64,000 bases of DNA from Protoeuglena noctilucae (Eukaryota). The notes under the pieces were generated by a model. It saw only the letters and a program-made list of their open reading frames with translations. It ran no database searches and was not told the DNA's origin. This document shows, in pieces, positions 6,147 through 63,100 of the stretch; positions within the stretch are counted from its first letter, which is position 1, and each line of letters begins with the position of its first letter. Both the position numbers and the translations under genes were made by a program. Location of the stretch: assembly GCA_958009085.1 (NCBI GenBank), contig OY253690.1, positions 248,001 through 312,000 on the forward strand, given 5' to 3'.

Positions 6147-9100
6147 TCACTTGCTCCGCACCTTCTTGGCCGGCCTCTCCCTCTCCCGCCTCATCTCCTG
6201 CTCCTGAGCAGCAGCAGCCGCCGCCTGTTGCTCCGCCAGCCACTTCGCATACAGCGCCACAGACAGATCCTTGGTCCGTCCCTCCTTCCCCAGAGCCTCT
6301 GCCACTTTGGTAAGGGCACCCTGCACGCGCTGGGGGTCCTGGGCATAGTCCCTGGGAGGGGTGGGGGTTGGGGTGAGGGGTGAGGGGAGAGGTGAGGGTG
6401 GAGATTGGCGTACTCCATAAACATGCATGGCATTGGGATGACAGTCCATGCACTTCAAAAGCATGCCATCATCCCCCAGTAAACATGGGCCCTCATTGCC
6501 CCCCCCGCACATTGTCACTTGTCCAAGACAGCTCCACATACAACCCCCCATCCCTCACTTGTCCAGCAGCTCCACGTACACCGCCGATCTCCCCCACCGC
6601 GTCTCTGTCTTGACGCGGCCCACGTTGGCAGAGCGCGCCGCATTGAGCACCGAGGACGCTGCGGGAATGGGACGCGGATGCATGGCATAGTTAGAAAGGA
6701 AGATGGAGAGGGGTTGCTAAGGAATATGAGAGACAGGGTCACGGGACAAAGTGAACCCCCATGGACAGCTAGGGGCTGTCGTCACGCATGCATAGGGCAC
6801 CGCCATCACTACCATCGCCCCCCTCCACCTCTCCTCACCTGTCACCCCCATGTCACTGTCCATGCTCGCCCCCTTGTACACCACCAGCACGTTGGTGCGC
6901 GCCGACCCAAGGGGGCTGTCCCCATCGATGCTCCAATAGGCCAGGTCCACGCCAGCCGCGTTGTAGCGGTTGCGGTAACCTGAAAGGCAGACAGACGCGG
7001 GGTGTCGTGGCAGTTGCGGTAACCTGACGGGCCAACAGATACAGTGGGGTGGCATGAGCAGACGCCAGCGCAGGGTCACATGAGCATGCAGCATGCACCC
7101 CCACCACCCCTCTCTACCCCAACACCACCCTCACCCTCCATCATCCCCCGCATGCACACCCCACACCCCAGTAATCTCTCACCCTCCACCACCCCTATCA
7201 TACACACCACCACCACCCCTCACCCTCCACCACACCATCATGCACCCCCACCACCCCACACCCTCATGTTACCCCACCCCCTCTACCCCACTCCACCACC
7301 CCCCCACACCCTCATGTTACCCCACCCCCTCTACCCCACTCCACCACCCCCCCTCACCCTCATGTTACCCCACCCCCCCTACCCCACTCCACCACCCCCC
7401 CTCACCCTCATGTTACCCCACCACCCCCCCAACCCACCCATCCCACCCCCTCACCCTCGACCGCCTCGAGCCCCGGCGCCCTCCCCATCCCCTCCATCGC
7501 CCTCTCCACGCCCATCGGCCCCTCCGCCGCCATCCCCTTGGCCTGCGCCACCCGCAGCAGCGCCCCAAACACCGCCCCGGTCATCCACGCATCGTACCCC
7601 GCCTCATGGGCCAGCCCCGCGCCCTCTACCCCCGCATATCGCCCGAAGCCCTCGGCGTGCCTGACCCTGGGTAGCGTCCAAGGCTGGGGAAGGTCGCTGT
7701 GATCAGTGGTGGTGTCGCCGGCCTTGTCGCCTGTCTTGTCCCCTGCATTGCTCTCCTTTGCTCCGTGCACCAAGTCGCGGAGATAGGCGTCTACGGCAGC
7801 GGATGCGGGGCCGGAGCGCTCCACTGCAGGGGGATGGGGTGGGGTGGGGTTCAGGGGTGGGGGTGAAGTGATGCGTGGGGCACATGGGCGTGGGGGTGAC
7901 TGACGGAGAGGGACAGAGCGAAAAAGGGGGCCATGGATGAGAAGCAGTCAGTGTTGAGATCACGACAGATCTTTGCATGCATTGACAGCTGCCAACCTCT
8001 TCACCAGCCAACCCACCCCACCCCTCCCCTCTCCTCACCCAGTGCCGTGTACACCGTCCCTCCCATCTCCTTACCAACTCCCCACTACCCCACCCCCCTT
8101 CCCATCTCTCACCATACAAGTCTGCCCAATTCCCCCTTCCCCACCCCATCCCACCCCTTCTCACCCAGTGCCCTGTACCCACTACCCACCCCACCCCACC
8201 CCACCCCACCCCACCCATCTCTCATCTCTCACCCAACGCCATCTTCACAGTTCCCATTCCCCACACTACCCCACCCCACCCCACCCCACCCCACCCATCT
8301 CTCATCTCTCACCCAACGCCGTGTACACCGTCCCCAGCGCCGTGTCCCCCTGGAACACCTCAAAGGGCAATCCCCTGGCAATCAGCTTGGTATCGTACAC
8401 CCCCCCCGGCAGCCACTCCCTCATCAGAGCACAGAAGGCGGGCCAGGTGGGGGGCAGGGGCGCGATGAACTGAGAGGTGAGGAAAAGGAGGTCCAGGCCC
8501 ATGTTGTGGCCGATGAGGGGCACGCGGCTATCGCGCAGGACCTCCATGACGGCACTGAAGCCCATGAGGTCGTGGACGGCCTGGACAGATGCCGCGCGGG
8601 ACGTCTGCTTGCGGGACTGCACCTCGGACGCTGGGGTGGGGGGGGGGATGGGGACGATTGGGGCTGGGGTGGGGTGAAGTGGTGTGGGAGGGGAGGGAAC
8701 AGGGGCGCATCTGCTTTGCGACCAGGGTTGCTAATGCGCTTGCGGGCAAGGCAGGTGAAGGGGGCTAAGAAACCACGGTCAATCATCGTGAACATGACTG
8801 TCCCCACCGCAACCCCTCTCAGTCATCGCAGTCTACACTCTACTAAACATCACAGCCCCATCAACCCCCCAACACCCTCCCCCCCCCCCTCACCCGTGAC
8901 CCTCTCGAGCCTCAGCCCCACCCAGGACCCCCTCTCCTGCTCCACTTTGTCCCACCACAGGGAGTGCGCCTCCGGTCCCTTGTCCTTCTGCCTCTCTTGG
9001 ATAGTCGCCAGCTCATAGTACAGCACCTTTCGCAGAAAGGCGTTCATGGGGGCGATGTCTAAGGGAGCCACGTCACCCTCAGTTGCCAGCCATGCTTCGA

Positions 9101-10834
9101 CCTTGGCCACATGCTCGTCGCGCCACTTGGTTGCGTCCTCGTTCTGGGAGATAAGTGAAGGGATTCAAAATGATGGTCGGAGATAGGAAGGGCGATGGAT
9201 GACGTTGACAACGACAGCGGTGGTGGTGACGGTTGTTGCAGCGGCGAGGGGAATCTGTCAATCACTGTGGTCGATAGATTGGGATGTGCATGGGCACTCC
9301 TCCTCCGCCCTCTCCGCACACGCTCCACGGTCCACTCATAAGTCACCAGCCCCATCACATTTCACAAATCCACTCACCAGTCACCAAGCCCGATAACAAT
9401 CCCATATGCTTCCCCACACAGATAGCAACAGATCCCCTCACCAGCGCCGGGCACTCCTCCTCAACCCTCTCTCAATCACATTCCCGCACATCTTAACACA
9501 TTCAAAACCACATCCACATTCGAATCCCCTCACCAACGCCGGGCACTCCTCCTCGGCCCTCTCGGCCAGCCTCTGCAGCAGCGCCGACCGCGATGACAGG
9601 GGCGCGAAGGGCACCCCGTGGTATACCCACTTGTTGAAGTCGAAGCTGCACGAGGCCAGGAAGTGCAGGCTGCCGGGGTCGCAGAGGAAGAAGCGGGGGG
9701 GGGAGCCGTCGCGGGGCTGGGCGGGGAGTTGAGGGGGGGAGTATATTAGAGGAGCAGGTGGGCGGGGCTCAGGGGGGCTGTGTTGGGGGGGGGAGTAGAA
9801 TAAAAGGAGCGGGGGGGGGGGAACGTCGCGGGGCTGCATTGCATGGGGGGGAGGGAGGGTGAAAGGCAGGGGAGGTGGGGGGAAGGGTAGGAATTGAGAG
9901 GGGGGGTGGAGGGGGGTGTAGAATGGAAGACGCGGGCGGGGGGGGGCTGAGGGGGTAGTGAGTAGAATGGAAGGAGCGGGGGGGCCTGGCTAAGGGGGGG
10001 AGGGGGTGGGGGGAGGAGTTGAAGGAGGGTGTGTGGGTACCGAGTCATGCAGTGAGGGTGTGAGGGAGGGGTGACGACGAAGTTTCAGCTGACACAACGC
10101 CCCATCCGTGCAGTCGTCACTCCCCATCCTTTACCTCAAGCGGCATGTCACCCCCCCAAACCATGCACACGTCACGTCACTCTCCCATGCATCCCTCACC
10201 TCGGGCGGCATGACGTAGAAGTTGAAGGTGTGGGCCACGTAGCACCCGGGGCTTTCCACGGTGGGCCCTTCCTCCCACTGAAACACCGACACGCCGATCT
10301 GGTGCGCCAGAAACTTCTCCACGCTGGCCCTCTGCAAACGGCGGCGGTGCATGGGAGATGGGCGCACCCGCTAGTCCCGCTAGGCACGCTGGTGCAGCTA
10401 TGAGCGTGGTCCTTTCATGCACGCCACGTGCATTCGAATCACACGCTGAGACAGAAACGAAGGCGACTCAGCAAAGGCAGCGGCATGTGCCCAAAGGGCA
10501 TATGCACGACGCGTGTTCCGATGAAGTCACTCGCCTGGGCGGCGTATCGGTCCTCGGCCGTGTCCCACCAGCTGTTGATGTTGTCGGGGCCGAAGAGACC
10601 CGTCATCTCGCAGTCGATGGCCACGAACTGCGCGTCGTTCAGGCAGTCCCTGCGGACAGGCGATTGCACTTGCACGTTGAGAAAGCCCGTTGTGGGTGAA
10701 AGTCACGTCGATCGCGCATGCTGCACGCTCGCGACCTGCAGGACACTTCCAGAGATACACACGCACGCAGCGCCGGGCGCCGCTCGCCGGAGGGCGGAGA
10801 GCATCCGCGGGAAATTCTCCTTGGTGACCTCCAT
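6147..10834 (-). CDS. PARN: Poly(A)-specific ribonuclease (CAF1/DEDD family), multi-exon
   Basis: MEVTKENF..FVAIDCEMTGLF, with D28/E30 in the same register as human PARN when the GC donor at 10787 is used. Also FDFNKWVYHGVPF, R3H-like MNAFLRKVLYYEL, LIGHNMGLDL, YDTK, HEAGYDAWMTG and a C-terminal RRM-like region. Confidence 0.92.
7261..7424. repeat. Intronic minisatellite, about 3.4 copies of a 48-nt unit
   Basis: The unit CCCTCATGTTACCCCACCCC..CTACCCCACTCCACCACCCCCC starts at 7261, 7309, 7357 and 7405. Confidence 0.9.
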
Positions 10835-12873: not shown

Positions 12874-15800
12874 ATGCAGGGATACAGCGAGCATCTCTGT
12901 CTGTCGATCCGCTACCAGGGCATCGACAAGATCGAAGCGGAGCGCCTGCTGGTGGCCGTGAACCAGGACCCGGACGCGGCGGGCAAGGTCGCGTGCCTCG
13001 ATCTGTGCGGGAACCGGGTGAGCGTTGGCTCGGGCCCTCGATTGTGACGTCAAGATGGCTCTGAGCTGGCCCGCGCGGCTCCCGGGGCGAGGCTCGGCCT
13101 GCGCGGGCCCCGAGTGCCCCGCATGCAGGGCCCGCAAAGCGCTGCGAGCTCCGCCGACCCCGCCCGCCCCGCAGATAGCGAGCCTGGAGGGTCTGGAGGA
13201 GTACAGCTACCTCGTCTCGCTCTCGCTGAGCCAGAACCGGCTCTCCGCGCTGTCTTCCGCGTCGTTCTCCTTCACCCTCACCCACCTGGATGTCTCGCGC
13301 AACCACCTCACCTCGCTCGCGGGGGTCCAGGGCCTCCCGTTCCTCACCTGGCTCGATGCCAGCCACAACCAGGTGCCGCGCGCGTCGCGGCCCGCAGCGC
13401 GCGACTTCAAACACGCATCTCCGGTCTGCACTTCCCATCGGCATTGCAGCCAGCCGCGCCTCCGCGCTGCGCATCGCACCCCGCTCCGTGCGAAATGTGA
13501 CTCGAATATACCAGATATACCCCCGCGTCCCCGCAGATCTCCACGACGGCGGAGATCGCGCAGTGTTACCGCCTGCGGACACTCCTGCTGGGACACAACC
13601 GCATCCGCTCTGTGTTCGGACTCGAGGGCCTTTTAGAGGTGGAGCGACTGCAGCTGCACGGCAACGCCCTCGCGGGGCAGGCCGAGCTGCGCCTCCTGGC
13701 CACCCTGCAGAAACTCAAGGCGAGTTAGGGTTCACGACACAGGGGGGGACGTTGCATTGCATGCGAGGGAGTTGCTTGGTCGTCGCACTGATCAAGATAC
13801 CCACCTGCCTGATGCTACTACACCTCATTCCTCAGTGATTTGCACCTGCAAGACATACCCTCCCTCTCTCTGCATCACACTCACCAACCGCCCTCCCCGC
13901 AGCACCTGACCCTCCGCGGCAACCCCGTGGCGTCCCTCCACTATCTCCGCCTCAAAGTCACCCACATGATGCCAGGACTCGTCTCCCTGGACGGCCAGCC
14001 CATGCGCTCCGGGCCCAGCACACCCCGTGGGGGCCGCAACCCCCTGGCCCGCTCGCAACAGACCCCCGCAAACGCCGCAACTCGCGCGGAGCCGTACGCG
14101 AGATTCGAAACGGTTTTCAAAGCCCCGTTGTTCGACCCGCCTGGGACGGTGGGGCCCGAGGGGCAGATGCTGGACGACTGTGAGCCGACGCTGGATGTGG
14201 ACTATGCGCCCGATGAGGCCGTGGCGTGGCTGAGGACGGCGGTCAGGTGAGGGGGTTTGGGTTGGAGGGTGTGTGGGGTGTGAGATTGCAGGTTGCAGGG
14301 GGCAGAGAGGGGGATGGCTTGGGATGATAAGTGACCGCGTTGTTTCCTATCTGTTCATTATCATGCATTACCAAAGCCCCACCCTCACCGCATCGTCATT
14401 GTTCTCTTCCACCACTATCACCACCACCACCACCACCACTCTTACTTATCCTCTACCCCCTTTCCCCCCCCCAGCGACGTGGCCCAGGCCTTTGACCTGG
14501 AGACCTCGGCGTTGGACGCCTCGACCCACTGGGCCAACCACAGCCGCAGCGCCGAGGCACGCACGCCGGGGGCGAGGGAGCTCAACGCGCTGGAGGTGAG
14601 GGATGCTTGGGAGTGCGAACGTTGGGGAGGATCAAAAGGTGCGGCTGGCAATGAGTCTGCAGTTAATCATGTGCACTCTTTTCAGGTGCACTAGTATGAG
14701 GCTTTCTTCAACGCTCTTGACGACAGCGGCAGGCATTTGTAAGAGCATTCCACACGCACACCCTCCCCCCCCAGACCACCCCCCTCTCCTCCCGCCGCAC
14801 CGGCATCCACGGCTACCTGGTCCCCGGCTCCCCCGAGCACCGCGCCGCCACCTCCCGCCCCGCGTCCCCGCCCCCCCGCTCCCTGTGGAGCCCACCCCGG
14901 GCCAGCAGCGCCCGCACCGCCAGCCCCGCTCCCTCCAGCCCCGGGCGGCTGAGGACGGAGGAGTCGGTGGGGCGGCACATCGCAAGGCTGCACGTGGCGA
15001 GGGAGAGGGAGGAGGAGCGGACGGGTGAGGGGGTGGATAGCCTATGAGAGAGTACAAGGGACGAGTAGATATCAATCAGATTACCGCCCTTGTATCCCCT
15101 CTCCCATCGCAGCCACCAAGTCCCTGCGCCTGTGGACCTGGAGCAGCCCGGCCGACTCCTCCACCCTCCTCAAGCCCTCCTTACGCGACGTCTCCCCCCA
15201 AGTCCACACCAGCTGGGACGCCGCCCCGCCCCTCAGCCCCACCGCTTTACGCCAGAGGCAGCAGCTGTCAGAAACAGCCCATGTCGACCGACTGCGCAGA
15301 GCTGCGGAGGCAGAGGCTAGAGGGGTCGCAGCGGGGCTGCAGCTACCGGGAATGGAGAAGAAGAAACCTGGGGTGGTGCCGCAGGTAGTGGCGGGGGCGG
15401 GGATGGGTGGGGTGGCTAAGGACGAACATGGGCGCATACGCGAGGCGGCGTCTAGGCACGCGGAGCGGCTGCATTACGGGAGCTTGTTGGCTGAGGAGGA
15501 GACGAGGGGGAGGCCGCTGCCGGGGTACCACACGCCCACGCTGGTGCAGCAGGTGGGGGATAAGGAATGCCTGGACTGGTTCAATAGCATCATACCAATC
15601 AAGGTATGCAGTAAGTACTACTCACATATCTTCATTCTGTTTATCCTTTCTCCCCAGGCGCTGGCTGCCTTGGAGGAGCGCAGCCTGGGTGCGGCAGCTG
15701 GGGGTGCTGCGGGACAAGCGGGGCTGGGGGCGGGGTCTCAGCCCCGGGAGGCACTGCGGGCGAATTCGATCGCGGAGAGACTGGAGAGGCGCATGTCGGG

Positions 15801-17582
15801 TGAGTGGGAGAAGTAGATGTAATGGTGTGGTGGTATCCACCATATGTGGTGGTATGGTGCTGAGGGGAGAGGTGGATGTGGTGGGTGAGTGGGAGGGGGT
15901 GGATGTGGTGGTATGGTATGGTGAGTGAGGGGAGGGACTGAAGAGGCGCATGTCGGGTGGGGGGGGGGGGTGGTGGATGTGATGGTGTGGGTGTGGTGGT
16001 GGTATGGGTGTGGTGGGTGAGGGGGAGGGAATTCATGGGGTGGTATGGGTGTGGTGGGTGAGGGGGAGGGACTGGAGAGGCGCATGTCGGGTGTGTGGCA
16101 TGATTAGTGAAAGGTGGCTGTTATGGCGTGTGCGCGTTGGGTGAGTACACGAGCTTGCCTGTGGCTCTTCGCATGTGCACTTGCAATGGGTGATCCAAGC
16201 GACTGACACCCAGACACCCAGTAAACTCGTAACAACGTGCCAGTCACGTGCCACTCACTCACCTCCCCCCATACACACACCCCCTCACCCCCCTCCCCGC
16301 CCTCCCAGGCAGTGCCCCCAGCACCCCCCGCCGCATGGACAGCGCACCCAAGCAACAGGCCCACGCCAGCCGCCTGGCCTCGGGGTCACCAGCCACCGGA
16401 TCGCCCTTAAAGGACGCGTCCAGTACTAAAGACCCCTTCACCTTCCACCCCCACCACGACACGGACAACGACGAAACCCCAGGCATCGATCAACACCACG
16501 ACCATGGTCACCAGGGCCCTAGTAACCACGGCCACCAGGGTCAACACGGCCACCAGGGTCACCAAGGCTCGAGTCATGGCAGCCACCAGGGCCCCAGTAA
16601 CCACAACCACCAGGGCTTCACTCAGAGCAGCCAGCAAGGCAACCAATCAGTCGACCCTTGGCGCGACTACGCACGAGGCGACGGGGGCAGTAATGAGAAT
16701 GGCAACCGGCATGGCGACGCAGGCGCAGAGGCGGGGGCGGGGGCGGGGGCTGCTAAGGGACCGTGGCCCTCTAGGGGCGCGGTGGCAGGGGCACACGGCG
16801 GGGGCCTAGCCAGGGATTCGAACCTTTACCCCCCGGCGGCACGCGGGGTGGGTCAACCGCGGGATTCGAACCCTTATCCCCTGCCGGCCGCGTCCCAGTC
16901 GCCGTCGGCCTCGGAGCCTGGTCCCTCGGCGCTGACGGTGTCCGAGGGGTCGAGTCTGACGACGGGAGGGGCGGGGGCAGAGGTGAGGGGGGTGGTGGGG
17001 TTGGGAGAGGTTGGTGGGGGAGGGCCGGGGGCGGAGGTGAGGGGGGCGGGGAGAGTGGGAAGAGTGGGTTGGTGGGAGAGGGTGGGTGCAGGGATGTGGT
17101 GAGGGGGGCGGTGGGGTTGGGTGCGGGGATGCGGTACGATGAAGGGAAAGAAGAGGGTAGTTGCGTAAGCGGAGTGGCATTGGCTTAAGTGGCACTGTTT
17201 GGTATGGGAGCGTCCTGTGTTTGTGCTCATCGCTACTTCATCCTCACCTCCCTCGCAGGGCGGCAGTCGCGCGTTCATGGAGACGTTGGAGGAGGTGGTG
17301 TCTGCGAGGAGGACGGCGTGGCAGGACAGGGTGCAGTCCATGAAGGACAGGGGTGCGTGTGGGTGTGCATGTGGTGGGATGTGGTTGCATGTGTGGCAGG
17401 ACAGGTTGCAGTGCCTCGGCTGCATTGCTATCGTCATCACCATCATTATCGTTACCTTAACACCATCACAATCTTCATCATCGACACTGACCCGCCACCC
17501 TCCCTCCCTGCCCTCCCCAGAGCGCACGACGTCCAATGCCAGCGCCACGGCAGAGCTCCTCCGCACCCTCCAGGGCCAGTAA
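12874..17582 (+). CDS. SDS22-like leucine-rich-repeat protein with a long low-complexity C-terminal region, multi-exon
   Basis: Repeats LDLCGNRIASLEGL, LSLSQNRLSAL, LDVSRNHLTSLAGV, LDASHNQI, LLLGHNRI, LQLHGNAL and the LRRcap HLTLRGNPV..LVSLDG. The 3' exons are joined on splice-signal evidence only. Confidence 0.72.
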
Positions 17583-19854: not shown

Positions 19855-19895
19855 GGTGCGCCCCCCTCGAGACACCGCCGCGCCGAAGACACTCT

Positions 19896-23405: not shown

Positions 23406-26059
<2,654 letters not shown>

Positions 26060-50700: not shown

Positions 50701-51105
50701 CACGTAACACATACCCTACATCCCCCTCCTCCTCCCCTTCCCCCAGCCCATCCAGGCGGCCTTTGACGCCGCCCAGAGCCACCGGCGCCCCGAGTGGCGG
50801 CTGGTCTTCATGCTGCCAGAAGCGGCCGGTCGCGTCAGGCAGCTGGCGGAGCAGTGCTGGAGTGCGGACCCGCAGCACCGGCCGACGTTCGAGGGGGTGG
50901 CAGACGCGCTGGATGAGATGCTGGGGGGGCTGGTGAGGGTGAACCCAATAGTCACCACAGTCAACCATCGATTTACTTATACATACTCATATATACTATC
51001 TCTTTCTCCTCTCAGCCCCCCGAGGACCCCTCATGGCTCTACGCCCCCCGGCCCGAGTCCATGACCAAGAGGAGGGGAGCATGCGCGGGGTGCACCGCGA
51101 TGTGA
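47784..51105 (+). CDS. Ankyrin-repeat Raf-like protein kinase (plant ILK/VIK type), copy 2, C-terminus CTAM; start codon tentative
   Basis: LHGESAARRRAIQELLFFASVGD (homologous to copy 1), CCDYDSRTPLHLAASEG, WEIDP, GQGEFG, HRDLKP, DFG, TGSYRYMAPEVFRHEPYNNKVDVY. Confidence 0.9.
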
Positions 51106-52895
51106 AGATGGGAGATGCTGGTAGTTGATCGGAATAGCTATTGCTTACAGCAACAGCGATGCCGACCAAGGGGGGTGGGCGCGTGGGGTGGGCGACGATC
51201 GGTGACTCAGCAAAGGGGGGCGTGCGCGGGGTGCATCGAGATGTGAGATGCGATGGGAGACATCAGATTGACACTGGGGATGGCGTTCACGATGTCATCA
51301 ACCGTGTGGGGTAGGGTGGGCGACTGGTGGCCTAGCGGGGGGGGGGGGGGCGTGCGCGGGGTGCAGCGCGATGTGACATGGGATGGAAGAGACAGACATG
51401 GGGCTTGCTTGGTTTGACTATCATTGTCTGTAATACGAACCATGTGGGGTGGGGTGGGGTGGGGTGGGGATGGGGGTGACGATCGGTGACTGAGCAAAGG
51501 GGGGCGTGTGTGGGGTGCAGCGTGATGTGATGCGCGTGATGGGAGAGACAGAGAGGCAGGCACTGGCGGGGTTGGCGTTGACGAGAGTCGACCAGCCATG
51601 TGGGATGGGTGGGGTGGGGTGGGATGGGATGGGGTGGGGTGGGGCAACAACGAAACCACCCAGCCATGCAAGCGCTCCGTGTCGCGCCGGCAGCGAGCGG
51701 AGTCGACGCGCGGCCGTTGACATGACAGCGACACACAACACGCAGCTGCTCCGCGCTGCTTTGCGCTGCTTGCGTTGCTCACGCGACCTGCTTCACTTCA
51801 CGCGACCCTTTGTGTGCCGCCCGGCCCCCGCGTGCAAGGGGCTGCTTGCGTGCTTGCGCCAAACACCCCCGCACATACCCTGCCCGTGCTCGGTAAGGTG
51901 TCCGTTGGGCATAGAGCATGATAGTTAGTCCGTCAATTAGGACCGACGGCGCCAGGGTCAGAGTGACGAGCAGCCTGTGACTAGGGCGGTTGGGGCGATG
52001 GGGAGTGGCGCGAGATTACTCACTAGCTTACTTACTGGCTTAGTAAGTGTTACTTACCAGCCAACAACACCACCAAGCCGACCTGAGCCATCGCCGCAGC
52101 CACCCCTGCCAATGTCAATGCAGTGACCCCTACTGCCCGTCTTGCGGTTACTGTTACTGTTCCCTTTTCCTACTCCCCTTTCCCATCAACGCTCGTTGAA
52201 AGATCGCGTTCTCTGTTTCTATATCTTATGCTATGGGTACAATGTAGGGGTGGTGACTATGACACCTCAGTAACACATCTACAATGCCTGCTTAGATTAG
52301 TGACAAAGGAAGAAACTCTGAGAGTCGTGGGGTGCAAAAAGTGCAAAGCGCATTGGTGGGTGGGTATGGGGCTGGGCTGGGTGGAGCAAGGGGCAGTGCA
52401 GTGCAGTGTTGAGCAATACCATTCGATGCAATCAGCAAAGGGTGGCGTTGCGCAGTGGTTCGCTGGTGTTGTGTTGGTGATGCTGGGAACGAGGGCAGCT
52501 GCGGTGGCGGTGGCCGGCGGTGCGTTATGTAGAGAGGTGTAAGTTGGAGAGATGATGTGTTAGAAAGAAGATGAGATGAGATGAGAGACAAGAGACACTT
52601 GCAAGCAGTGTGACAGAAAATGTTTTGCTTTTCATTTTTCAAACAGCGAGGGGCGGAATGGCGTCACCCCATTTCCAGCCCCACCTACCCACCACCACCA
52701 CCACCACACTCCCCACCCCCCCACTCGCACACCCCACTACACTCTCATCAACACCCCGCATCACCCCCCACTCCCACCATACCCCCTCTCTCATCATCAC
52801 CCCTGCTTGGCCCTGGCCACCACCACCATCCCTACCACCACCACCGCTCCCCATCACCCATCCACATCCAATCACACCCATATCTCCCCCCATCT

Positions 52896-55800
52896 CTACC
52901 CCTGCTTGGCCCTGGCCACCGCCTCGGCCGCCGCCGCGGCAATCGACGCGTCGTTCGCGTTCGGCAAGTAGTAGTACTGCCCCTGCCCCGCCTTGGCGAT
53001 CTCCTGGGCGAACCCGGTCGATACGAACTTGTTCTCGGTGTCGATCACCAGCAGCTGCAGGCCGGCGGCATAGACCTTGCGGGACATGTCGAGGACCTGG
53101 GGGGGGGGGGTTGTGGGGGTGGTGAGTGATGTGGGGTGGGGTGAGTGGGGTGAGGGTGGGAGTGGGGGATGAGGGAGTGGAAGTAAGGGTGACTAGGGTG
53201 GGGGAGAGGCAGTGAAGGGTGTGTGAGGGTGAGGGTGGTGGAGGGGTGGTGAGGGGTTGGACACACCCACATTCAGCAAACACTTCCCCTATTTCAACCA
53301 CCATCACTCTCACACCTACTTACTCCATCACTCCCACATTCAGCCATAACTCCCATCTCACCTCCGCCCTCAGCTCCTCCGCCCCCATGTTCTTCTGTTC
53401 TTCTTGGGCAGCTCCCCCTCACACCCACACCCACTAACACACACACTAGCACACACCATGACAATTCAAATTCAAACATTCAAACACCCTTCTCACCTCC
53501 GCCCTCAGCTCCTCAGCCGCCATCTTCTCCTTCGGCGGCTCCCCCTCCGCTTCGTTGGCCTTGGACAGCGGCACGTTGGCACGACCATCCGTGATGAGCA
53601 CCACCATGGCGCGGCCCACGTCGCCCTGGGTGTCAGGAGAGATGGGGATAGTCGACATAGTATATATACACTATATGGCATTGTGTAGACTGCATGGCAT
53701 ATCGATGTGTATGGGATGGGTGGGACGGGGTGAGGACCACCGTGGCGCGGCCAATCTCCCATCCCATATCCCACCAACCACTCCCAGCCAGCAACAGCAC
53801 AAACAGTACCAGTCACAATCACACAACTCTTCCCCACTCTCACCTGCGCGAGTGCGTTCATGCCCGTCCTGGCCGCGAGCGACAGCCCGTGCGCCAGGGG
53901 CGACCCCCCCCCGCACGGCAGCGTGTCCATGCGCTTGCGGGCCATCGAGATGGACTTGGAGGGGGGGAGCAGCACCTCGGCCTTGTCGCCGTAAAAGGGG
54001 ATCAGGCACACCTGGGGGGATGGGGGGATGGGAGTTAGGTGTTGGAATAAGAGTGAGTATGATGGTGAGAGTGGTTGTCAGTACTATGGTAAGTGCATCG
54101 GCCTTGTCTCCATAAAAGGGGATCAGGCACACCTGAGATGGAGGGGGAGATGGGGAGAGGGGAGGGTGTGCAGAGCTGCTTTAGTGATGGTGGTGAGCGA
54201 CAGCGCTGCACTGTGCAGCCGCATCCACACTCCCATCAGTACCATCATCACTCTCCCTCTCTGTTTATCTCTACTCATATACACCCACTCACCTGGTCTC
54301 TGCTCTGGTACGAGTCGGCCAGTAGCCGCATCACGGCCCCCTTGGCCGACGCCATGCGATTGAGCGCCATGCTGCCCGACGCATCCACCACAAAGAGCAC
54401 CAGCGCGCCTGCCTTGCGGGCCATCTTCTTGGCGCGCATGTCGGGCTCCTCCACAAACACGTTGCGGGAGGCCTGGGGGGGATGGGGGGGAAGGGGTGGG
54501 GTTGGGGTTGGTGTGGGTGGGTTAAGAGGGGGTGAGGGGGTGGGTTGGGGGGGTGAGGATGGGGGAGGGGGAGAGGGAGAGGTGTGAGCGTCAGGAATGA
54601 TTGCGAGACGGCTGGGAGTATCGAATAAAGTGTGTGCACAGTTCAAACACCCAACAAATACCCACTCGCCTTTCCCTCCCGGACCGCCTGCTCCCGCCTG
54701 CTGCGCTGGTACGGGGCTGCCGCCCTGAGCGTGGCGTCCACGGCCAGCCGCCGCACTTTGCCCTTGGGGAGGATGGGCTTGATGTAACGACCCCGGTCCT
54801 CGCTGAAGATCAGGTTCTTGGCCCTGGGTTATCAGTGCAAGGGGTGTTGCAGTCTTGTGCTTCTGGGTCACGTTGCGCTTGACCAATGAGGGAGTCCATT
54901 GGGCAAGGCACATGGCTGCCAACCACACACACCATCCCTCACCTCCCGTGCTGCTGCTGCTGCCAGGCCTCCATCTAAGTGCCCACCGCACACACCCACA
55001 CACTCCATCAATACACACACCCCCACTCCCTCACCTCCCGCTCCTCCCCTGCGCCCTCTGCTGCTGCTGCGCCATCTGCATCACGCTCGGGTCCATCACC
55101 ACCCCCTCCGTGTCAAACATGAACTCCTGCGGGATCTGATCCGATTCGGGGTCGTCCTCGTCGTCCTCTTCCTCGTTCTCGTCTTCTTCCTCCTGCTCCT
55201 CCTCCTCCTGTGTGGTTATTGGGGAAATGGGGAGGTGTGTTAGTATAAGTAATATAAATCATCTACTGCAATAGTACTGGTGCTGTAAGTACTGGATATT
55301 TACAATAGCAGGTGCCGCCAGCTCACCTCCACCACCTACCCCCACCCATCTACATTCGTAATCCACTTATCTATATATCTTATACTATATATATTATATA
55401 TAACCGATCCCCATCTCATCCCCCCCTCACCTCCTGCTCCCCGCTGTCCTGGGGCGGCGGGGGCGGCGGCGGCGGCGGCTGCTCCTCGGGGGGAGGGGGG
55501 TCCCTCAGCACACTCCTCGGCAATATCACCAGCTCCACCGCGCGCTGCAGGTCCTCCGGCTCCACCCGGTTGCGGCCTTCCAGGGCTGCGCACGCCTTGG
55601 CGACCCGCACGGCAAAGACCTCGGCCCGATGCCCCTGCACGCCCCCGCGGCGCGCCTCCTCCACCAGGTACTTGACCTGATTGGGGGAGGGGGGAGAGGA
55701 AGGTTATAAACATGTATATATAGTATTATATGAGAGAGAGGGTGAGTGAGTGGGGGTGGCAGTGAGGGAGGCAATCGGGGTGGCAATGAGGGTGAGGGTG

Positions 55801-58550
55801 GCCAGAAGAGTGGGGGTGGCAGCGTGGCGACCGACTTCAGGTACTCTCATGCCCATGCACCCGTCACTACTTCACTACATGCACCCACATTCCCCCTCTC
55901 ATTCACCTGCTTTGGCCCGATGGCGACCGTCTTCAGGTACTCGCGTGCGAATATGATGTTGGTCTTGAGCTCCTCCGTCAGCTCCGTCACCTCGCGGAAC
56001 ACCGACTGTTGGGGATGGGGGGGGTAATTGAAGTGAGAGGGATGGGAGAGGTGAGAGGTGAGAGGGGGGGCTTAGAGGGGTGGGAGTGGGGGTGAGAGTG
56101 GGATGGGGGAGGGGGTGGGAGAGGTGGATGAGGCACTGTGACGCTCTCCCTCACTCTGCACCATCACCACTTCTACTCAACCACTCACCCACTCCCTCAT
56201 CTACTGCCACCATATGTCATATAATAATTTTCAGTCATTCCCCATATATACACCCCCATCACTTACCTGCGGGTCGTCCTGGAACCTCTGCGCCATCTCC
56301 ACCGCCGCCACCCGCTCCTCGAACGACGCCGGCACGTCGCAGCTCAGCGTCACGGCCACGCGGTCCAGCAGGTGCTCGCGGAGGGGGCCCTCTGCGATGG
56401 TTGAGCATAGGAGAATACGAGTATATATTTGAGTATACTCCGGGTTGTAGGTGGCAATGAGCACACAGTCACTATCACCCCAAACAAACACCAATTAACC
56501 ATTCCATCTCCCCTCCCCCCCCCCCCCCCTCATCTCTCACCCTCCGGGTTGTAGGTGGCGATGAGCATGCACTCACTACCACCCCACAGCACCATCCAAT
56601 TAAGTAATGAGTAATAACCGCTCAATTATAACCACTCAACCACCCATCAACACCCCCCCTCACCCTCCGGGTTGTACGTGGCTATCAAAAGTGGCCGGCA
56701 GGGGTGGGAGATGGAGATTCCCTCCCTCTCCACCACGTTCACGCCGTCCGCCAGGATCGACAGCAGCAGGTTGCAGATGCCGTCGTCCAGCAGGTTCACC
56801 TCGTCCACGTAGAGGATGCCCCGGTGGGCCTCGGCGAGGAGGCCGGGCTGGAAAACCGTCTTGCCCTCCTGTTGGGGGGAGGGGAGGGGGGTGTCAAATC
56901 GGTGTTTAGATTGTGGGAATGGTATGTGAATGGATGCAAGTGGGTGTGAGGCCGGGCTGGAAGACCGTCTTGCCGTCCTGTTGAGTGGGAGATGGGGGGG
57001 ATGGGTTGGGGTGAGTTAAAGTGGGGGTAAGAGTGGGAGTGTGTGTGACAGGCCTAGCTGGTACACCGGTACTCACATCCACACCCATCTGTACATCTGT
57101 TATACTCATCACCCCCATCACCCCATCATACATCTGTTATACTCATCACCCCCCCATCACACTCTCACCTTCATTGACGCCTCGATGTCCACCGTCCCCA
57201 CCAGGCGGTCCTCGGTCACCCCCAGCGGGATCTGCACATAGGGAGCCTCCTTGACGACACGCACGGGGTCGGCACCGTTCAGGCGCTCGCGGAGGCCGTC
57301 CTCCCACTCCCCGGGGGAGTCTGGGGTGGGGGAGGGGGGTGCTAGTGGTGTTGAGCGGGGGTGGGGGTGTGTGGGAAGGGGGTTGGGGGTTGTTAAGGGG
57401 TGTTGAGAGGGGGGGTGTGGGGGTGTGGGGGGGGGTCGAGGGGTGTTGTGGGTGAGGGGGGGAAGGTGGTGTGAGAGATGCGGCTGAGAGAGGTAGGGGT
57501 TGAGTGGGGAGGTGGGGAAGGGAGGTGGTGTGATAGAGTTGAATGATGTGACAGGAAATCTGAGAACAATGGAGGGGAGAGATGGGGAATGAGGGAGGAG
57601 CGACGGAGCACGGTTGGTGTAGCGGCTGCGTTGCATGTGCACGTGCTGGGTATTGAGATAGGAGCGGTCCTTGCTGTCCATCCCCCCACTCCACCCCTCT
57701 CCCATCCCACACCGTCCCGGGAGGGGAGGGACAGACCGTCGCGTGAACCCATGCATGGGGTGCGTGGAGATGGGGAGAGCGGCACCGCTCGCTAGTACCA
57801 CCGGTAAGACATGCAATGGCGAGTGCGCGGACACATCAGTGGGCACGCACACCCCGACCACCCCCATCGCTCACCACTCTCCCGACTCCCCACACACACC
57901 ACACCCACTCCCCCTCTGCCCCACACACCCACTCACCCGGGTCCGCATTGCAGATGGACCCCTCGACGACCTCAATGGGCGGCAGCAGGGCGTGGATGCC
58001 CCTGGCCATGATGGACTTGGCCGTGCCACGCCTCCCCGCAATCGCCACGCCGCCCAGGTTCGTGTCGCACGCGCCCAGGAGCAGCGCCTGCGGGGAGACA
58101 CGATGAGCGCGCTGGGAAGAAAGAATGGAAACAAAGCGATGTGATGGTGACGACGCCCGGGCCGCGGCGCGCCTGCTTGATGAGCTGCTGGCCCACGACC
58201 GCGGCGAGCGGAAAGGTGCGGAGGAGCTTCAGCTGCTTGCTGTCGCTGCTCAAGAGGACGGAGGAAGACTGTTCCATCGCCTCGGCGGCCTTGGCTGCGG
58301 GCATGGCGAGGCGCTCGGCGTGTCGCACCACGGATAGAGTGCGCGCGTCCGCGCCCGCCCCGCGATCTCGTGGCCGAGGGCTGGCGCGGGGACGGTCACC
58401 TCGGTCCTCCGCCGAAGCCGCAACTGCCGCGATGGCGAGCGACCTCCCCGGCTTCCCCCATGGCGTCGCGCGCGCGGCCGGGCGCTGACCCCCGGGCCCA
58501 GCTGCCAGGCGCGTCGCGCCGGCCCACCAGGCGCAGCAGGCGCCCTTCAT
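52896..58550 (-). CDS. CHLD: Magnesium chelatase subunit D, nuclear-encoded plastid protein, multi-exon; start tentative
   Basis: [60 protein letters not shown], a polyproline/acidic linker, and the vWA motifs [14 protein letters not shown] and LITDGRANV. Confidence 0.97.
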
Positions 58551-58894
58551 CCGGGTCCCCGAAACGCGATTTTCAGAACATGAAACGATGGGATGCCAGG
58601 CGCGCGCCCACGTCGCTCCCGGCGGTGTATCTCCGCGGGAGGGTCGGTGGTCGAGCCGATGCCGATGCGATGGTGCGCGGGTGCCGCGTCGATTCTTCGA
58701 GATGCCGATGCGAGTCCCGCACCTCGGCCCGACGCCCCTTATCCTGGCCTGACGCCCGCTGTCAGAGCCCCGGGCCACCCCAACCCCGGCCAAGGCTCCC
58801 GGGGGCCCGTACCGGCCCGCCTGTCACGCCCACGCGAAACCCCACTGCTTCTCCCCCCCGCCGGCCTCGCCCTCTCGGGATCCTCGCGCTCGCC

Positions 58895-59846
58895 ATGTCC
58901 GCCGTCCGCGCTTTTGGGGCTGGGGCCGTCCGCGTGCAGGTGAGGCACCTGCGGGCGGTATCCGGGCGCCAGGGGGCGCGTCGCGCGTCTCGCCGACGTT
59001 AACGATCGCGGGGACGCCGCTGCGATCCGCGCGCGCCCGGTCGCGGCGAGGGGAACGAGGCCGGCCCGAGGGCGGGGATCTGCGCGGGCCCGGGGCTATA
59101 CTCGGCCGCGCGCCGCGTCCTTACCGTCGCACCGAGCGAATGTCCGCGTCTAATTAGGGGATGGGGCCCCCCGGGCGCCGTGGGGCCGGCCCGAGGGTCC
59201 CATGGGGCGCCGCTTGCCGCGTCGCGCGGGCGATGGCCGCGATGCGTCGCCCACCGCCTTGCTCGGATCGTCGTTTCGCGCAGGCGCGCCCGTCCGTCCG
59301 GGCGGCGGTCCGCCGCGCCGTGGTCTGCCGCGCGGTCGACAAGGAGCAGGTCCTGACGGACGTGCGCTCCATCATCGCCGAGCAGCTGGGCACTGACGTC
59401 AACTCCGTGACGGTGCGTGGCGCGCGAGCGCGGGCGATCCGCGCGCGGGGCATGGAGCAGCGCGGGGCGCCCCTCGGGAGTCGGGGCGCGGCTTCATTAT
59501 CTTTCCCGGGGCCGCGCGGGAGTCCTCCTGGCGTCGCTCCGCGGCCTCCAAGAGATTCCCATCTCGTAGATCTCGCACTTGTCGCGTCCCTCCGCGTCCC
59601 GCGCCCCGCAGCCGGGCCGTCGCGCCCACGTGCGATGCGTCGTTCACGCTTCCCCCTTCGCGCGGCGTTTCCCCGCAGAGCGAGGCCAAGTTCTCCGACC
59701 TGGGCGCGGACTCCCTCGACACGGTGGAGATCATGATGGCTCTGGAGGAGAAGTTCGACATCCAGCTGGACGAGGAGGGGGCGGAGAACATCACGACGGT
59801 GGGGGAGGCCGCTGACCTCATCTCTGCCCAGATCAACAAGGCCTAA
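58895..59846 (+). CDS. ACP: Plastid acyl carrier protein; exons 58895-58939, 59284-59412, 59679-59846
   Basis: Ala/Arg-rich transit peptide ending VVCRA, then [10 protein letters not shown] and [20 protein letters not shown] (phosphopantetheine serine). Confidence 0.96.
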
Positions 59847-60178
59847 GCTTTGAAGTTAGGCCACGGGGAGCGGACGATCCATTACTCCGCGAATAGCCAT
59901 CTAGGGGCGGCACGCGCGCCGTTGAAGCGTGGAGTCGTTGTTGATGAGGGGGGTCGGTGTGGGGGTTGGGATGGCAAAGAGTTGTTATCATTCAAAGAGG
60001 GGAAGAGGGGCAAGGGAAGAGGGAGCTGCGCGTGCGGCATCGCGGGGCGAGAGCAGAGCGGAGGGGAGGGAGGGGGACACGTTACGGTTGGTAGCAACTA
60101 TGTCGCACCCTGCCATGATTGTTCCAGCAACACCGTCACACAGCATCTGGAGACGCTGCCATGATTCAGTCACAACCT

Positions 60179-63100
60179 TCACTGCAGCGACTGCAGTCGG
60201 AAGGTGACGGCCTGGCGGTGGGCGTCCAGGCCCTCCACCTCCGCCTGTGAGGGTTGGGGGGGTGAGTGAGTGAGTGAGTGAGTGAGTGAGTGAGTGAAGA
60301 CATTGCCATGGTGGCTTTCATAGCATAGCACAGGACCGTGCTGTGCGTGAGGCGTGGCCTGGTAAGCGTCTCACCATCTTGGCCACGTGGGGTCCCAGGT
60401 TGCGCAGTCCCTCCTCCGTCAGTCGCTGCACCGTGACCTTCTTCTGCAGTTGGCATAGACACAGGCATGGTTAGTATGAATGGGCATGGTCAGACGCTGC
60501 AGTCAGCTGTCCATGGCATGCCACTGATCACCCCTACTGTACAGGGCATGCTCGTCGCTATTAATCTCATCACTCCACTCTCACCTGGAACGAGTCCAGC
60601 GACACCCCGCTGTACATGGCCGCGTACCCGTAGGTGGGCAGCACGTGGTTAGTGCCGCTGGCGTAGTCGCCCATGCTCTCGGGGGTATACCTGAGTGGGG
60701 GGAGAGGAGGGGGCATGGTTGCAGGGCAGGGATGACTGAGATGAGATGACATGCGCTCTCCACCTTTCCACTCCCACTGCCTTGCTATCACTCACATCCA
60801 TTCCCATCCACCCCAACCTCACCTCCCAAGGAACACCGACCCCGCGCTCTCCACCCCCGGCAGCCACTCGTCCGCGTCTACCGTGTTGATGATCAGGTGC
60901 TGGATGGAGAGATGAGAGATGAGAGGTGAGACAGTGAGAGAGTGAGAGAGTTACTGCTTGGCATCAGACAGGCCATGTTGATGATCAGGTCGACCAAAAT
61001 GCGCAGCGCCTCCCCCCCTCTCACCCCACCCACCACCACCCCATCCATGACCTTTCCCATGCATTCCCACCCCACCACATCGTCACTCTTAGTCAAACCC
61101 CCCCATCCCCCCCCCCTGTCTCACTTCGGGCGCATATTCGTTGGAAATACGCAGCGCCTCCTCCCTCGACTCCACGGCGATGATGCAGCTGTTGGCGATG
61201 GCGCGGCTAGCCACCGACGCGCGTGGCAGGGCCGACAGCTGGCGGTGCACCTCCGCAGCCACGGCGGGGACGTCTACGCCGGGGAGGGCCAGGAGGATGA
61301 CCTGTAAGGGGGAGGGAGTGAGTTTGAATACAGGTGAGTGAGTGAGGGAGTGGCTACGTTCACGCCGGGGAGGGCGAGCAGGATGACTTGTAAGGGGGAG
61401 GGAGTGAGTTTGAATATAAGCGAGTGGGTGTGAACTGATGAGTGAGTGACTGTGGGTGAGTGAGTGTGTGTGAGTTTGCGATTGCGACTGTGGGTGGTGG
61501 AGGTCAGTCACCCCACCCATCCATCTCTTGCCTGGTTTTGCTGGCCGGTGCTCCGCCTTGCTGAGCAGGTCCACTACCAACCATGCACATCAACACCCAT
61601 CTACACCAATCATAGTCTACACATCATCATCCATTCCCCACCCATCCCTCGCCTGGCTATCTGGCCCGTGCTCCGCCTGGCTGAGCAGGTCCGCGGCCAC
61701 GTGCGCCCTGTCCGCCCCTGCGTCGCACACCACCAGCACCTCGGAAGGCCCGGCGGGCATGTCGATCGCAACCATCGCCTGGGGGGGAGGGAGAGGTGAG
61801 AGGGAGTGTCATAAATGTATAGTGCACAACGCCATAGAAGTGGTGGCAATGCAAGTGACAGTCACAACTATCGCAGGGTCACCTCCGTACCTGCACCCAC
61901 GCCACCCCAATCACCACCACTATCACTGTCTATACAGATAGTTGAGATCCTCACCTCCGCGTTCTGCATGAGCATCTTGGCCGCCGTCACGTACTGGTTC
62001 CCCGGGCCAAAGAGCTTGTGCACCTTGGGGCAGCTCTGCGTGCCCCACCCCATGGCCGCCACCGCCTGGGCGCCGCCTGCCTTGAGGATGTGAGTGACGC
62101 CCGCCTTCTTGGCACAATACAGGACCTGGGAGGGAGATGAGAGGGGAGGTGAGTGAGTGAGTGAGTGGGTGAGTAAGTGACGCCCGCCTTCTTGGCACTA
62201 TACAGGACCTGGGAGGGAGGGGTGTGAGTGAAGCTGTGAGTGGGCGAGGATGTGCGTCACGCCTGCCTCGCACTCTGCCCTTTTCCGCCCCCACTCAATT
62301 CAGGCGACACGCCCCACCCTTGTACCACCCCCACCGACCCCACCTCACCTCCACCAGACATGCTCCCACTATGCCCCTCTGTCATCCCCCCCTCATCAAC
62401 CCCTTACTCACCTCCGGCGATATGCTCCCGTCCTGCCTGGGCGGCGTGGCCATCACCACCGTGCGGCACCCCGCGATCTGCGCAGGCACCGCCAGCATGA
62501 GGGCCGAGGAGGGGAGCACGGCGGTGCCACCGGGGACGTACAGGCCCACGCTGTGAGGATGGGGGGAGTTGGTGAGTGAGTGAGTGAGTGAGTAAGGTGA
62601 GTGAGAGGGAGAGTTGGTGTGCGGGTGAGTAGGTGAGCGGAAAGTGAGGGAGTGAGTGAGAGTGGTAGTTGGCGAGGGCGAGGAGCGAGGTGCCCCGCCA
62701 CCACCTGTGTGCCCTGATATCAACTGTCCCATCCATCACCTCCACACCGCACCACGACTGCCCCCCTCCCCTCACCTGGTGATGGGCCTCGCCACGCGCT
62801 TGCATGTGACCCCCGGCATGGTGTGCACGTCCTTGGTCTCCGTCATCTGTGACTCGTGGAATGCCTTGATGTTGGCATAGGCCACGTCGAAGGCCTCGCG
62901 GACGTCGTCGGGGAGGGAGGGGTCGGGGAGATCAGAGGGCCTGGGGGTGGGGGTGGGAGAGGGGTAAGAGTGAGCGCAGCAGGGGGTATGAGGGGTGAGA
63001 GAGGGGGGTGGGGGTGAGGGCCGCGGGGTTGCAGAGGGGTCCGGGAGATCAGAGGGCCTGGGCGTGGGGGTGGGAGAGGGGTGGGGGTGTGAGCGTAGCG

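Follow-up and report, generated by a model that had tools for sequence, protein, structure and literature searches.

Are the ends of exons copied recurrently into the non-coding DNA next to them, and what process would place them there? The question is raised by a window of 64 kb from Protoeuglena noctilucae, the window being the whole stretch of DNA analyzed (positions 248,001 to 312,000 of the forward strand of contig OY253690.1, GenBank assembly GCA_958009085.1) and the frame of all coordinates given here. A first-pass annotation of this DNA claimed that more than 25 coding boundaries are accompanied, on the non-coding side, by an imperfect direct copy of the exon edge, termed an echo, and proposed a recurrent local duplication process centred on coding/non-coding boundaries. 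Exon-edge echoes in this window are confirmed to be real, and so is their concentration at coding edges. Introns and 3′ untranslated regions (UTRs) have been lengthened by local duplications, and mostly intact, apparently unused decoy splice sites remain inside them. On balance, the echoes probably descend from small, local duplication events in the DNA that reached ∼70–150 nt and were then filtered by selection and decay.

The window is eukaryotic, intron-rich, and ∼64% G+C, with a single gap of 200 Ns at 36074–36273, and its DNA is completely contained in four sequencing runs of a single organism and largely present in marine metagenomes and metatranscriptomes. Single-exon Pfam matches were obtained for a CAF1/PARN-type ribonuclease, the ribosomal proteins S7e, L14/L23e, and L13e, a DEAD helicase, WD40 and ankyrin/F-box proteins, a protein kinase, a Mg-chelatase, and a histidinol dehydrogenase; the Mg-chelatase gene is that of subunit D, by length and context. 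These matches confirm most gene names of the first-pass annotation; its labels 'NOL6', LRR, and kinase 1 are used as provisional names. Fifteen introns are joints in RNA contigs of two metatranscriptome runs (X8 and X10), and one extra intron, deduced by combining a loose end of an RNA contig with the reading frame, brings the RNA-supported set to 16. The Mg-chelatase D gene harbors 13 of the 16, and its joined exons form an open frame of 2256 nt. A small hidden Markov model (HMM) gene finder was trained on the RNA-supported introns, iterated over the window, and then curated to yield 82 introns of at least 60 nt (median 215.5 nt), which together make up 29% of the window sequence. GC donors occur in 2 of the 16 RNA-supported introns and represent ∼15% of donors in the trained model; GC-AG introns are found at 54473–54669, 58088–58172, and 61302–61652. 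A GC-donor share of 12–15% disagrees with Emiliania huxleyi, which has 56–60% (PMC4028052), and the intron density disagrees with Pelagomonas calceolata, at 0.186 introns per gene (bioRxiv 10.1101/2024.10.30.620910).

Chance similarity was assessed with a 40-nt query, consisting of 30 nt of exon and 10 nt of intron, that was compared with the adjacent intron and, as controls, with the remaining 81. Of 164 exon-intron boundaries, 35 have a copy in the adjacent intron that outscores all 81 control introns, where ∼2 such cases (164/82) are expected; 20 of the boundaries score 36 or more, 36 being the top control score anywhere. The RNA-supported subset contains seven positives among 32 boundaries. 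All 25 distinct boundaries listed in the first-pass annotation are among the 35 positives, and its claim that echoes extend to UTRs also holds, as strong 3′ UTR echoes accompany 2 of 17 stop-codon boundaries (scores 53 and 49 vs a control maximum of 26). The higher score belongs to the plus-strand kinase gene 48826–51105, in which three echoes at ∼51214–51246, 51344–51376, and 51499–51530 repeat the last 30 coding nt and the TGA stop (51073–51105), with a core identity among echoes of 29–30/33. The other belongs to the minus-strand Mg-chelatase D gene, whose last codons and stop (52891–52923) recur 99 nt downstream at 52792–52824; the 33 nt match at 88%, and the core 52799–52821 is identical to 52898–52920 (23/23). 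No convincing echo was found at start codons, where a lone score of 36 falls in a GGC-repeat region.

Aligned directly, the 27 pairs of the first-pass list are imperfect direct repeats, and their detection does not depend on that list. An unguided search along every diagonal at distances of 25–500 nt recovers the same pairs, and boundary pairs constitute nearly all complex local repeats in that scan, barring coding ankyrin/WD40 repeats and low-complexity arrays. A separate repeat-finding scan of 52700–63100 yielded 15 complex families, ∼12 of which adjoin or overlap a coding boundary. Tandem Repeats Finder lists mainly short-period, low-complexity arrays and misses the echoes. Contigs from another study (X1) and another sample (X6) cover both copies of many pairs with no differing letters; those of X1 span 46110–49218, 49289–50515, 50500–55145, 55215–60248, and 60305–63100, and those of X6 span 49289–50515, 53370–54446, 55215–56065, and 60305–62097. 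Because independent contigs span both copies without differing letters, mis-assembly is very unlikely, and the first-pass concern that the pairs might be an assembly product is refuted.

The distribution of copies along the gene is sharply biased. When 40-nt tiles are searched for a copy in the intron, the proportion of positives peaks at 16–19% for tiles centred 1–20 nt on the exon side; it is 0/492 for tiles centred 51–80 nt into the exon and ∼3% at 20–70 nt into the intron. Donors and acceptors contribute 14 events each at matched thresholds. Purely intronic duplications, which by the first-pass annotation would have refuted an enrichment at boundaries had they been equally frequent, amount to ∼4–5 independent intron-only arrays vs 28 boundary events at the same thresholds, an outcome in favour of that annotation. 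The phrase 'centred on coding/non-coding boundaries' stands as a description; mutational targeting of boundaries would be conjecture, since selection against decoys with long exon context, together with faster decay of low-complexity intron sequence, could mimic the pattern. Distribution among genes is uneven, with many echoes in the chelatase, histidinol dehydrogenase, PARN-type, 'NOL6', and second kinase genes and few or none in the first gene, the first kinase, the ribosomal-protein region, and most of the LRR gene. The ribosomal-protein cluster (18193–27854), said to contain none, has one weak match (21 vs 20) among 14 boundaries.

The period of the echoes has a median of 107 nt over the 35 positives. 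The spacing was originally given as 70–280 nt; measured periods extend from 33 to 291 nt, with the bulk at 72–151 nt. The exon part of the copies ranges from 8 to 55 nt, with a median of 26 nt and a maximum of 51 nt among the 35 positives, and one additional, exon-only copy reaching 55 nt. Echoes begin at least 40 nt into the intron, as calculated from the period minus the exon part. The copy usually includes the splice dinucleotide, as had been proposed: the boundary is reached in 27 of 31 copies, 26 of which keep GT/GC or AG, and is absent from the other four (from 5 of ∼36 when further copies are counted).

Twenty-two strong events can be divided by extent into six full-unit tandem duplications, in which the exon edge and the adjacent intron are repeated head to tail over the whole period, two intermediate cases that do so partly, and 14 short copies that do not. 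Full-unit alignments span, for example, 111/120, 102/111, 106/108, and 81/83 nt of the unit. In the minus-strand CAF1/PARN-type gene, the exon end and donor at 8298–8336 (intron 7824–8312) recur at 8218–8256 with a period of 80 nt (34/39; alignment over 77/80), and an extra copy lies at 8034–8060 (25/27 at a distance of 274 nt). Two acceptors with their exon starts are duplicated in the minus-strand 'NOL6' gene (41760–47068), one from 42096–42124 to 42216–42245 (28/30; period 120–121, alignment over 111/120 with 86/111 identical) and the other from 43120–43160 to 43231–43273 (39/43; intron 43146–43544, period 111–113, unit 89/111 identical). The plus-strand kinase gene 48826–51105 carries a copy of the acceptor and exon start 49775–49838 at 49668–49730 (49/64; intron 49498–49789, period 107–108, alignment over 106/108). 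In the minus-strand histidinol dehydrogenase gene, the acceptor and exon start 61270–61344 recur at 61356–61430 (75 nt at 88%; intron 61302–61652, period 86, alignment over 75/86), where the decoy AG has become AA, and those at 62090–62136 recur at 62173–62219 (re-measured at 45/47; score 75 vs 22; intron 62126–62411, period 83, alignment over 81/83), with a partial third copy upstream.

The 14 short copies are 25–81 nt long, and between the real edge and its echo lies an unrelated spacer of 28–104 nt that has no detectable copy beyond the echo. No spacer has a significant inverted match within 400 nt, and an inverted or fold-back origin of the spacers was rejected on this basis. Core identity is alike in the short-copy and full-unit classes, so the short copies are not simply older tandem duplications. 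Several introns contain three-copy arrays in which the spacer is common to the later echo units, and these arrays point to secondary expansion by slippage between copies. In the plus-strand LRR-labelled gene, the exon end and donor 15774–15807 (intron 15800–16308) recur at 15931–15960 and 16065–16098 (27/29 and 32/34), with an echo-to-echo core of 28/29 and an upstream spacer matching at 35/45. An array in the Mg-chelatase D gene (minus strand, RNA-supported intron 56392–56663) comprises the exon end and donor 56659–56685 and echoes at 56536–56586 and 56432–56482, with periods of 123 and 104 nt, an identity of 25/27 to the original, and an echo-to-echo core of 20/22. The full-unit events and these arrays bear out the proposal of recurrent local duplication.

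The copies have aged. In three of the six full-unit events, the intron part is ∼75% identical and gapped vs 94–96% identity in the exon part. Mismatches between real exon and echo, sorted by codon position of the real copy, number 27/280, 15/276, and 39/280 at positions 1, 2, and 3; on sequence grounds, this pattern would fit a freely drifting echo together with synonymous change in the real exon. The codon-position mismatches imply ∼5–7% neutral divergence per lineage, and hence the events are not brand new. Most decoys nevertheless score within the range of real splice sites, several score poorly, and one acceptor is the AG mutated to AA noted above. Echo-bearing introns are longer than others by about one period (median 274 nt, n = 30, vs 179.5 nt in 44 echo-free introns of 90–300 nt), in agreement with the predicted growth of introns. 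The predicted decoys were likewise observed, and they appear unused in the one gene checked: at 7/7 echo-bearing boundaries of the Mg-chelatase D gene, splicing in the RNA contigs of X8 and X10 is exclusively at the outer sites, the real copy being the RNA-supported splice site in all seven, although RNA contigs drop rare forms and rare decoy use could escape them.

These observations can be combined into a model in which the terminal 8–55 coding nt, usually with the splice site and adjacent non-coding sequence, would be copied directly into the neighbouring intron or 3′ UTR. Part of the events would be plain tandem duplications of a whole unit. Others would be short copies set ∼100 nt off, for which we infer a mechanism such as template switching or microhomology-mediated break repair, and later slippage between copies would generate the arrays. 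The mRNA would be unaltered provided that splicing or termination continues at the original, outer position; because the mRNA is unaltered, the event would be tolerated, leaving the intron or UTR longer by one period with a decoy inside. Splicing itself is not required, because stop-codon boundaries have echoes too. The concentration at coding edges would then arise from filters that we infer to act afterwards. Selection would remove duplications wholly inside exons, decoys with long true exon context would be removed as rivals of the real site, and copies of low-complexity intron sequence alone would fade faster than exon-derived cores. The greater divergence of the intron part in three of the six full-unit events supports such faster decay. 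The exon part, at 55 nt or less, agrees with a minimum size that a decoy would need in order to act as an exon, and its maximum lies just below the smallest real exons, which are predicted at 60–62 nt after exclusion of echo-derived, terminal, and frame-patch micro-exons. Geometry and selection might be expected to explain the bias, as a unit of ∼107 nt hardly fits a pre-duplication intron of ∼141 nt and most tolerated tandem duplications would cross a boundary, but the tests do not fully confirm this.

Several results weigh against duplication followed by filtering. A uniform tandem model predicts that 57% of boundary events have an exon part longer than 55 nt, and 0/36 have one (P ∼7e-14). 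The share of intron-only events is expected analytically to be 30% with any exon part, or 50% with an exon part of at most 55 nt, and ∼4 of 32–40 were observed. A simulation of uniform placement, with substitutions only and no indels, gave 40–45% of detected events as intron-only; at 7–15% divergence, it detected intron-only and exon-derived copies equally, at 92–100%, and poor detectability alone therefore cannot explain the rarity of intron-only copies. As the exon part never exceeds 55 nt and intron-only events are too few, no uniform-breakpoint model fits. The simulation and the analytic expectation thus weaken both geometry with selection alone and low detectability of intronic copies as causes of the boundary bias. 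Putative selection against decoys with long exon context could rescue the filter reading, and so could faster decay of low-complexity intron sequence. In addition, 14 of the 22 strong events lack a copy of the spacer at the same core identity as full-unit events. Compared with random intron positions, exon-interior echo edges are no closer to G or C runs (median 42 vs 36 nt, P = 0.95); an initially apparent proximity of echo edges to such runs vanished when only the exon-interior edge was considered. The exon-side ends of copies are G-rich (3.15 vs 2.42 G per 6-mer, permutation P = 0.0006), like the flanking intron, which fits what junctional microhomology would give, but extension of the alignment into similar sequence gives the same signal and may partly cause it. 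Finally, all counts come from one 64-kb window, and their main weakness is that 66 of the 82 introns rest on the HMM gene finder alone.

The same tests bear on a boundary-coupled mutational process, in which some mark of the coding/non-coding transition would determine where breaks or polymerase template switches occur, and the copied segment would be centred just inside the coding side by the mechanism itself without later filtering. Candidate marks are nucleosome edges, the abrupt change of complex sequence into G or C runs, and transcription- or splicing-coupled damage; coupling could thus come from chromatin phasing on exons or from breaks linked to transcription or splicing. The shape of the tile profile, the 55-nt ceiling, the tight distribution of periods, and the scarcity of intron-only events are what such a process would produce, and stop-codon boundaries act like splice boundaries. 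G-quadruplex-type motifs, of which 138 occur in the 64 kb and 77 lie inside the 82 introns, are also commoner in echo-bearing introns (17/25 vs 20/57, Fisher P = 0.008), but this association may stem from the duplications themselves or from intron length. The copies that lack the boundary tell against the process, as does the missing link between exon-interior edges and G or C runs, and selection with differential decay can mimic its pattern. To our knowledge, no DNA-level process reads stop codons. It is doubtful that a process physically coupled to these transitions copies the terminal 10–55 coding nt ∼100 nt into non-coding DNA as the main route of intron and UTR lengthening, and the boundary-coupled reading as a whole is held to be unlikely.

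Could the echoes be retained for a function, for example as decoys or binding platforms through which intron retention, nonsense-mediated decay, or the efficiency of splicing is adjusted? Retention of the dinucleotide in 26 of 27 decoys, scores in the range of real sites for most of them, and exon-derived cores that are more alike than their flanks, even from echo to echo, would be expected of conserved elements. The codon-position pattern instead agrees with an echo that drifts neutrally, and among the decoys one no longer has its AG and several have poor scores. The copied sequence is gene-specific and differs from echo to echo, the splice consensus being the only motif in common. Ribosomal-protein genes, which are highly expressed, all but lack echoes, and decoy use was not seen in RNA contigs, within the limit already given for rare forms. 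A function of this kind is improbable. Mobile intron elements (introners), which occur in marine algae, might leave footprints of this kind, as might other insertions whose target-site duplications are long: in 14 strong events, the two copies flank an unrelated spacer of 28–104 nt, as a target duplication would. The introns are, however, not mutual copies: an all-vs-all blastn comparison of the 82 introns revealed no recurrent sequence family, with 13 weak matches, the best 73% over 93 nt, and the similarity of the spacers to other introns does not exceed that of controls. Terminal repeats were not observed, the full-unit tandem events contain no insert, and the signature of intron birth by duplication was found in 0/82 introns, none of which beats controls when the intron 3′ end is compared with the upstream exon end or the intron 5′ start with the downstream exon start. 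An insertion origin is therefore highly improbable. Serial stitching of divergent haplotypes or strains, to which a probable metagenomic origin of the window, with one sample marked as a possible source, and the breakage of short-read contigs at many intronic repeats might point, is barely credible given the X1 and X6 contigs and copies that differ by 3–20%, each in its own unique context.

The remaining echoes of the window are described gene by gene; scores are those of the adjacent copy vs the control maximum. In the minus-strand CAF1/PARN-type gene, the acceptor and exon start 6960–6994 (intron 6980–7454) have an echo at 7004–7038 with a period of 44 nt (28/35, score 33 vs 21). The exon end and donor 9524–9563 (intron 9144–9533) recur at 9432–9471 with a period of 92 nt (37/40, 65 vs 24) and as a third copy at 9292–9314 (22/23), the spacer not being duplicated, and the acceptor and exon start 9688–9719 (intron 9717–10199) recur at 9804–9836 with a period of 117 nt (29/33, 44 vs 26). 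The gene also harbors a purely intronic 48-nt minisatellite at 7248–7422 (3.6 copies, 97% identity), the clearest intron-only array in the window. On the plus strand, the LRR-labelled gene has a weak pair, among the weakest listed, in which exon-internal sequence at 17318–17337 is echoed at 17393–17412 (intron 17353–17520, period 75; 19/20, 25 vs 21) and the splice site is not reached. The kinase-1-labelled gene, also on the plus strand, has an echo of the exon end and donor 30604–30636 at 30676–30708 (intron 30625–30892, period 72; 31/33, 53 vs 22).

The minus-strand 'NOL6' gene contains an echo at 43436–43480 of exon-internal sequence (43555–43599) located 10–55 nt from the donor of intron 43146–43544; the splice site is not included, the period is 119 nt (41/45), and the tiles cluster at a distance of ∼119 nt with a score of 60. 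Three further echoes in this gene derive from an acceptor and exon start: 43826–43872 from 43676–43721 (intron 43712–43975, period 150–151; 40/47, 50 vs 23; spacer not duplicated), 44884–44908 from 44760–44784 (intron 44782–45012, period 124; 23/25, 40 vs 20), and 46635–46671 from 46540–46576 (intron 46566–46787, period 95; 32/37, 47 vs 24). In the plus-strand kinase gene 48826–51105, the acceptor and exon start 49301–49317 (intron 49048–49306) are echoed at 49173–49189 (period 128; 17/17, 34 vs 23), again one of the weakest listed pairs, and those at 50125–50168 (intron 49889–50128) at 50014–50063 (period 105–111; 40/50, 32 vs 24). The exon end and donor 49468–49503 (intron 49498–49789) recur as a short copy at 49569–49604 (period 101; re-measured at 34/36, 62 vs 18), and the unrelated 65-nt spacer has no copy beyond the echo.

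In the minus-strand Mg-chelatase D gene, the introns concerned are all RNA-supported. The exon end and donor 53483–53547 (intron 53097–53496) are echoed at 53348–53420 (period 127–135; 59/73, 60 vs 30). Acceptors with their exon starts are echoed from 53977–54025 to 54098–54147 (intron 54012–54292, period 121; re-measured at 44/50, 56 vs 21) and from 56839–56881 to 56948–56991 (intron 56869–57168, period 109–110; 40/44, 62 vs 23). Two echoes are of exon-internal sequence, one at 53726–53752 from 53590–53616, without the splice site (intron 53626–53843, period 136; 20/22, 27 nt at 85%), and one at 55825–55852 from 55921–55948 (intron 55677–55906, period 96; 25/28); both copies of the latter pair, and of the pair at 54098–54147, are present in X1 and X6. 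Intron 55208–55430 of this gene is markedly A+T-rich with (TA)n-like runs, while the surrounding introns have G or C runs. A perfect 25-nt direct repeat, with copies 37 nt apart, at 57092–57153 is a young intron-only duplication with a shorter period than the echoes. Eighty metagenome loci were found with one Mg-chelatase D exon, and in the nine inspected, the match is one uninterrupted stretch (for example, 81% over 700 aa). The neighbouring plus-strand gene 58400–60440 has two RNA-supported introns, by far the highest RNA contig depth in the region examined, and no echo.

Three further echoes lie in the minus-strand histidinol dehydrogenase gene. The exon start 60881–60898 (intron 60900–61124) is echoed at 60973–60990 (period 92; 17/18, 31 vs 21), the last of the weakest listed pairs; the exon end and GC donor 61638–61699 (intron 61302–61652) at 61513–61579 (period 120; 51/60, 45 vs 19); and the acceptor and exon start 62917–62977 (intron 62941–63258) at 63034–63094 (period 117; 61 nt at 89%, 58 vs 31). 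The X1 and X6 DNA contigs join 63089 back to 62643 with 20 letters inserted, which reflects either a variant in length or, at GTGA repeats, an artefact of the assembly graph; other loose ends and back-joints of DNA contigs inside introns may likewise be length variants or graph artefacts. Elsewhere in the window, three intron-poor paralogues (2882–5211, 36878–38465, and 39504–41078) with an F-box-like start, ankyrin repeats, and a near-identical N-terminal stretch stand amid intron-dense genes, and the WD40 gene 34761–35644 has ∼7 units of a 126-nt (42-codon) repeat that are ∼75% alike at the DNA level. An atlas search with an ankyrin protein provided no clue to taxonomy.

Echoes also have practical consequences for annotation. 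In its first run, the HMM called three chelatase echoes micro-exons (53362–53394, a 33-nt call within the echo 53348–53420, as well as 54103–54132 and 56966–56977), all three of which are contradicted by RNA joints; the echo 62188–62208 in intron 62126–62411 was also called a 21-nt exon by the HMM. As our own gene finder made false micro-exons that RNA contigs contradict, automatic annotation of this organism likely carries echo-derived false micro-exons as well. If the pattern is genome-wide, it shows in sequence how short introns grow, each local duplication at an intron edge adding ∼100 nt. The echoes provide a large natural set of paired, identical or near-identical real and decoy sites, of both the donor and the acceptor kind, with which the selection of splice sites can be tested directly in an alga; even for acceptors, whose decoys are upstream of the real site, the outer one appears to be preferred. 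The 55-nt ceiling on the exon part, set beside smallest exons of 60–62 nt, could expose a size rule for exon recognition. Should a boundary-coupled process prove true, thousands of intact, silent decoy splice sites would be expected genome-wide.

The first-pass annotation knew of no description of echoes at this density, and full-text literature searches, which covered few subscription journals, agree in yielding single-gene analogues only and no account of exon-edge echoes at genome scale. The introners of marine picoalgae form multi-copy families with short target duplications and create new introns. The echoes resemble them in that sequence is added to genes of GC-rich marine algae and that tolerance depends on splice signals; they differ in that they share no common family and that the copied unit is the gene's own exon edge. 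The AGGT model describes intron gain or sliding by tandem genomic duplication, and internal gene duplication is reportedly treated by Gao and Lynch (2009). As in the AGGT model, a small intragenic tandem duplication doubles splice signals and splicing removes the extra copy. In that model, a new intron arises whose ends repeat the flanking exons and whose length equals the period, whereas 0/82 introns in the window are of this kind; existing introns are lengthened instead, with the extra copy within them.

At the level of enzymology, polymerase-theta-type end joining offers a plausible route. In Caenorhabditis elegans, it is described as generating templated insertions and small tandem duplications at breaks, including those at G-quadruplex motifs (PMC8654963). 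That source describes direct copies of flanking sequence near the break, tandem duplications from ∼100 bp upward, and a link to G-run motifs (PMC8654963), all of which have counterparts in the window, where 138 such motifs occur. Like templated insertions, the echoes are direct copies of sequence within ∼100–150 nt, and 14 of the 22 strong ones are short copies set off by an unrelated spacer. The same source gives a median of ∼1 kb for theta-type tandem duplications and describes templated inserts as short (PMC8654963), unlike the echoes. Exon-interior echo edges are, moreover, not near G or C runs, and both the enzyme and the break site would be putative here.

The closest analogue located is intron 7 of human F7, in which a 37-bp minisatellite (variable number tandem repeat) has a first unit that spans the exon 7/intron 7 boundary and is followed by silent pseudo-donors (PMC1557585). 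The repeat there, as in the window, starts in the exon, so that a true donor is followed by intronic look-alike pseudo-sites; in both, by that account, the outer site is used, which for the window was observed in RNA contigs, and the decoys of the window are mostly intact. F7 represents a single gene with one short-period donor array, whereas echoes accompany ∼21% of boundaries in the window (35/164) and occur at donors, acceptors, and stops, with periods of ∼100 nt, mostly two copies, and often an unrelated spacer.

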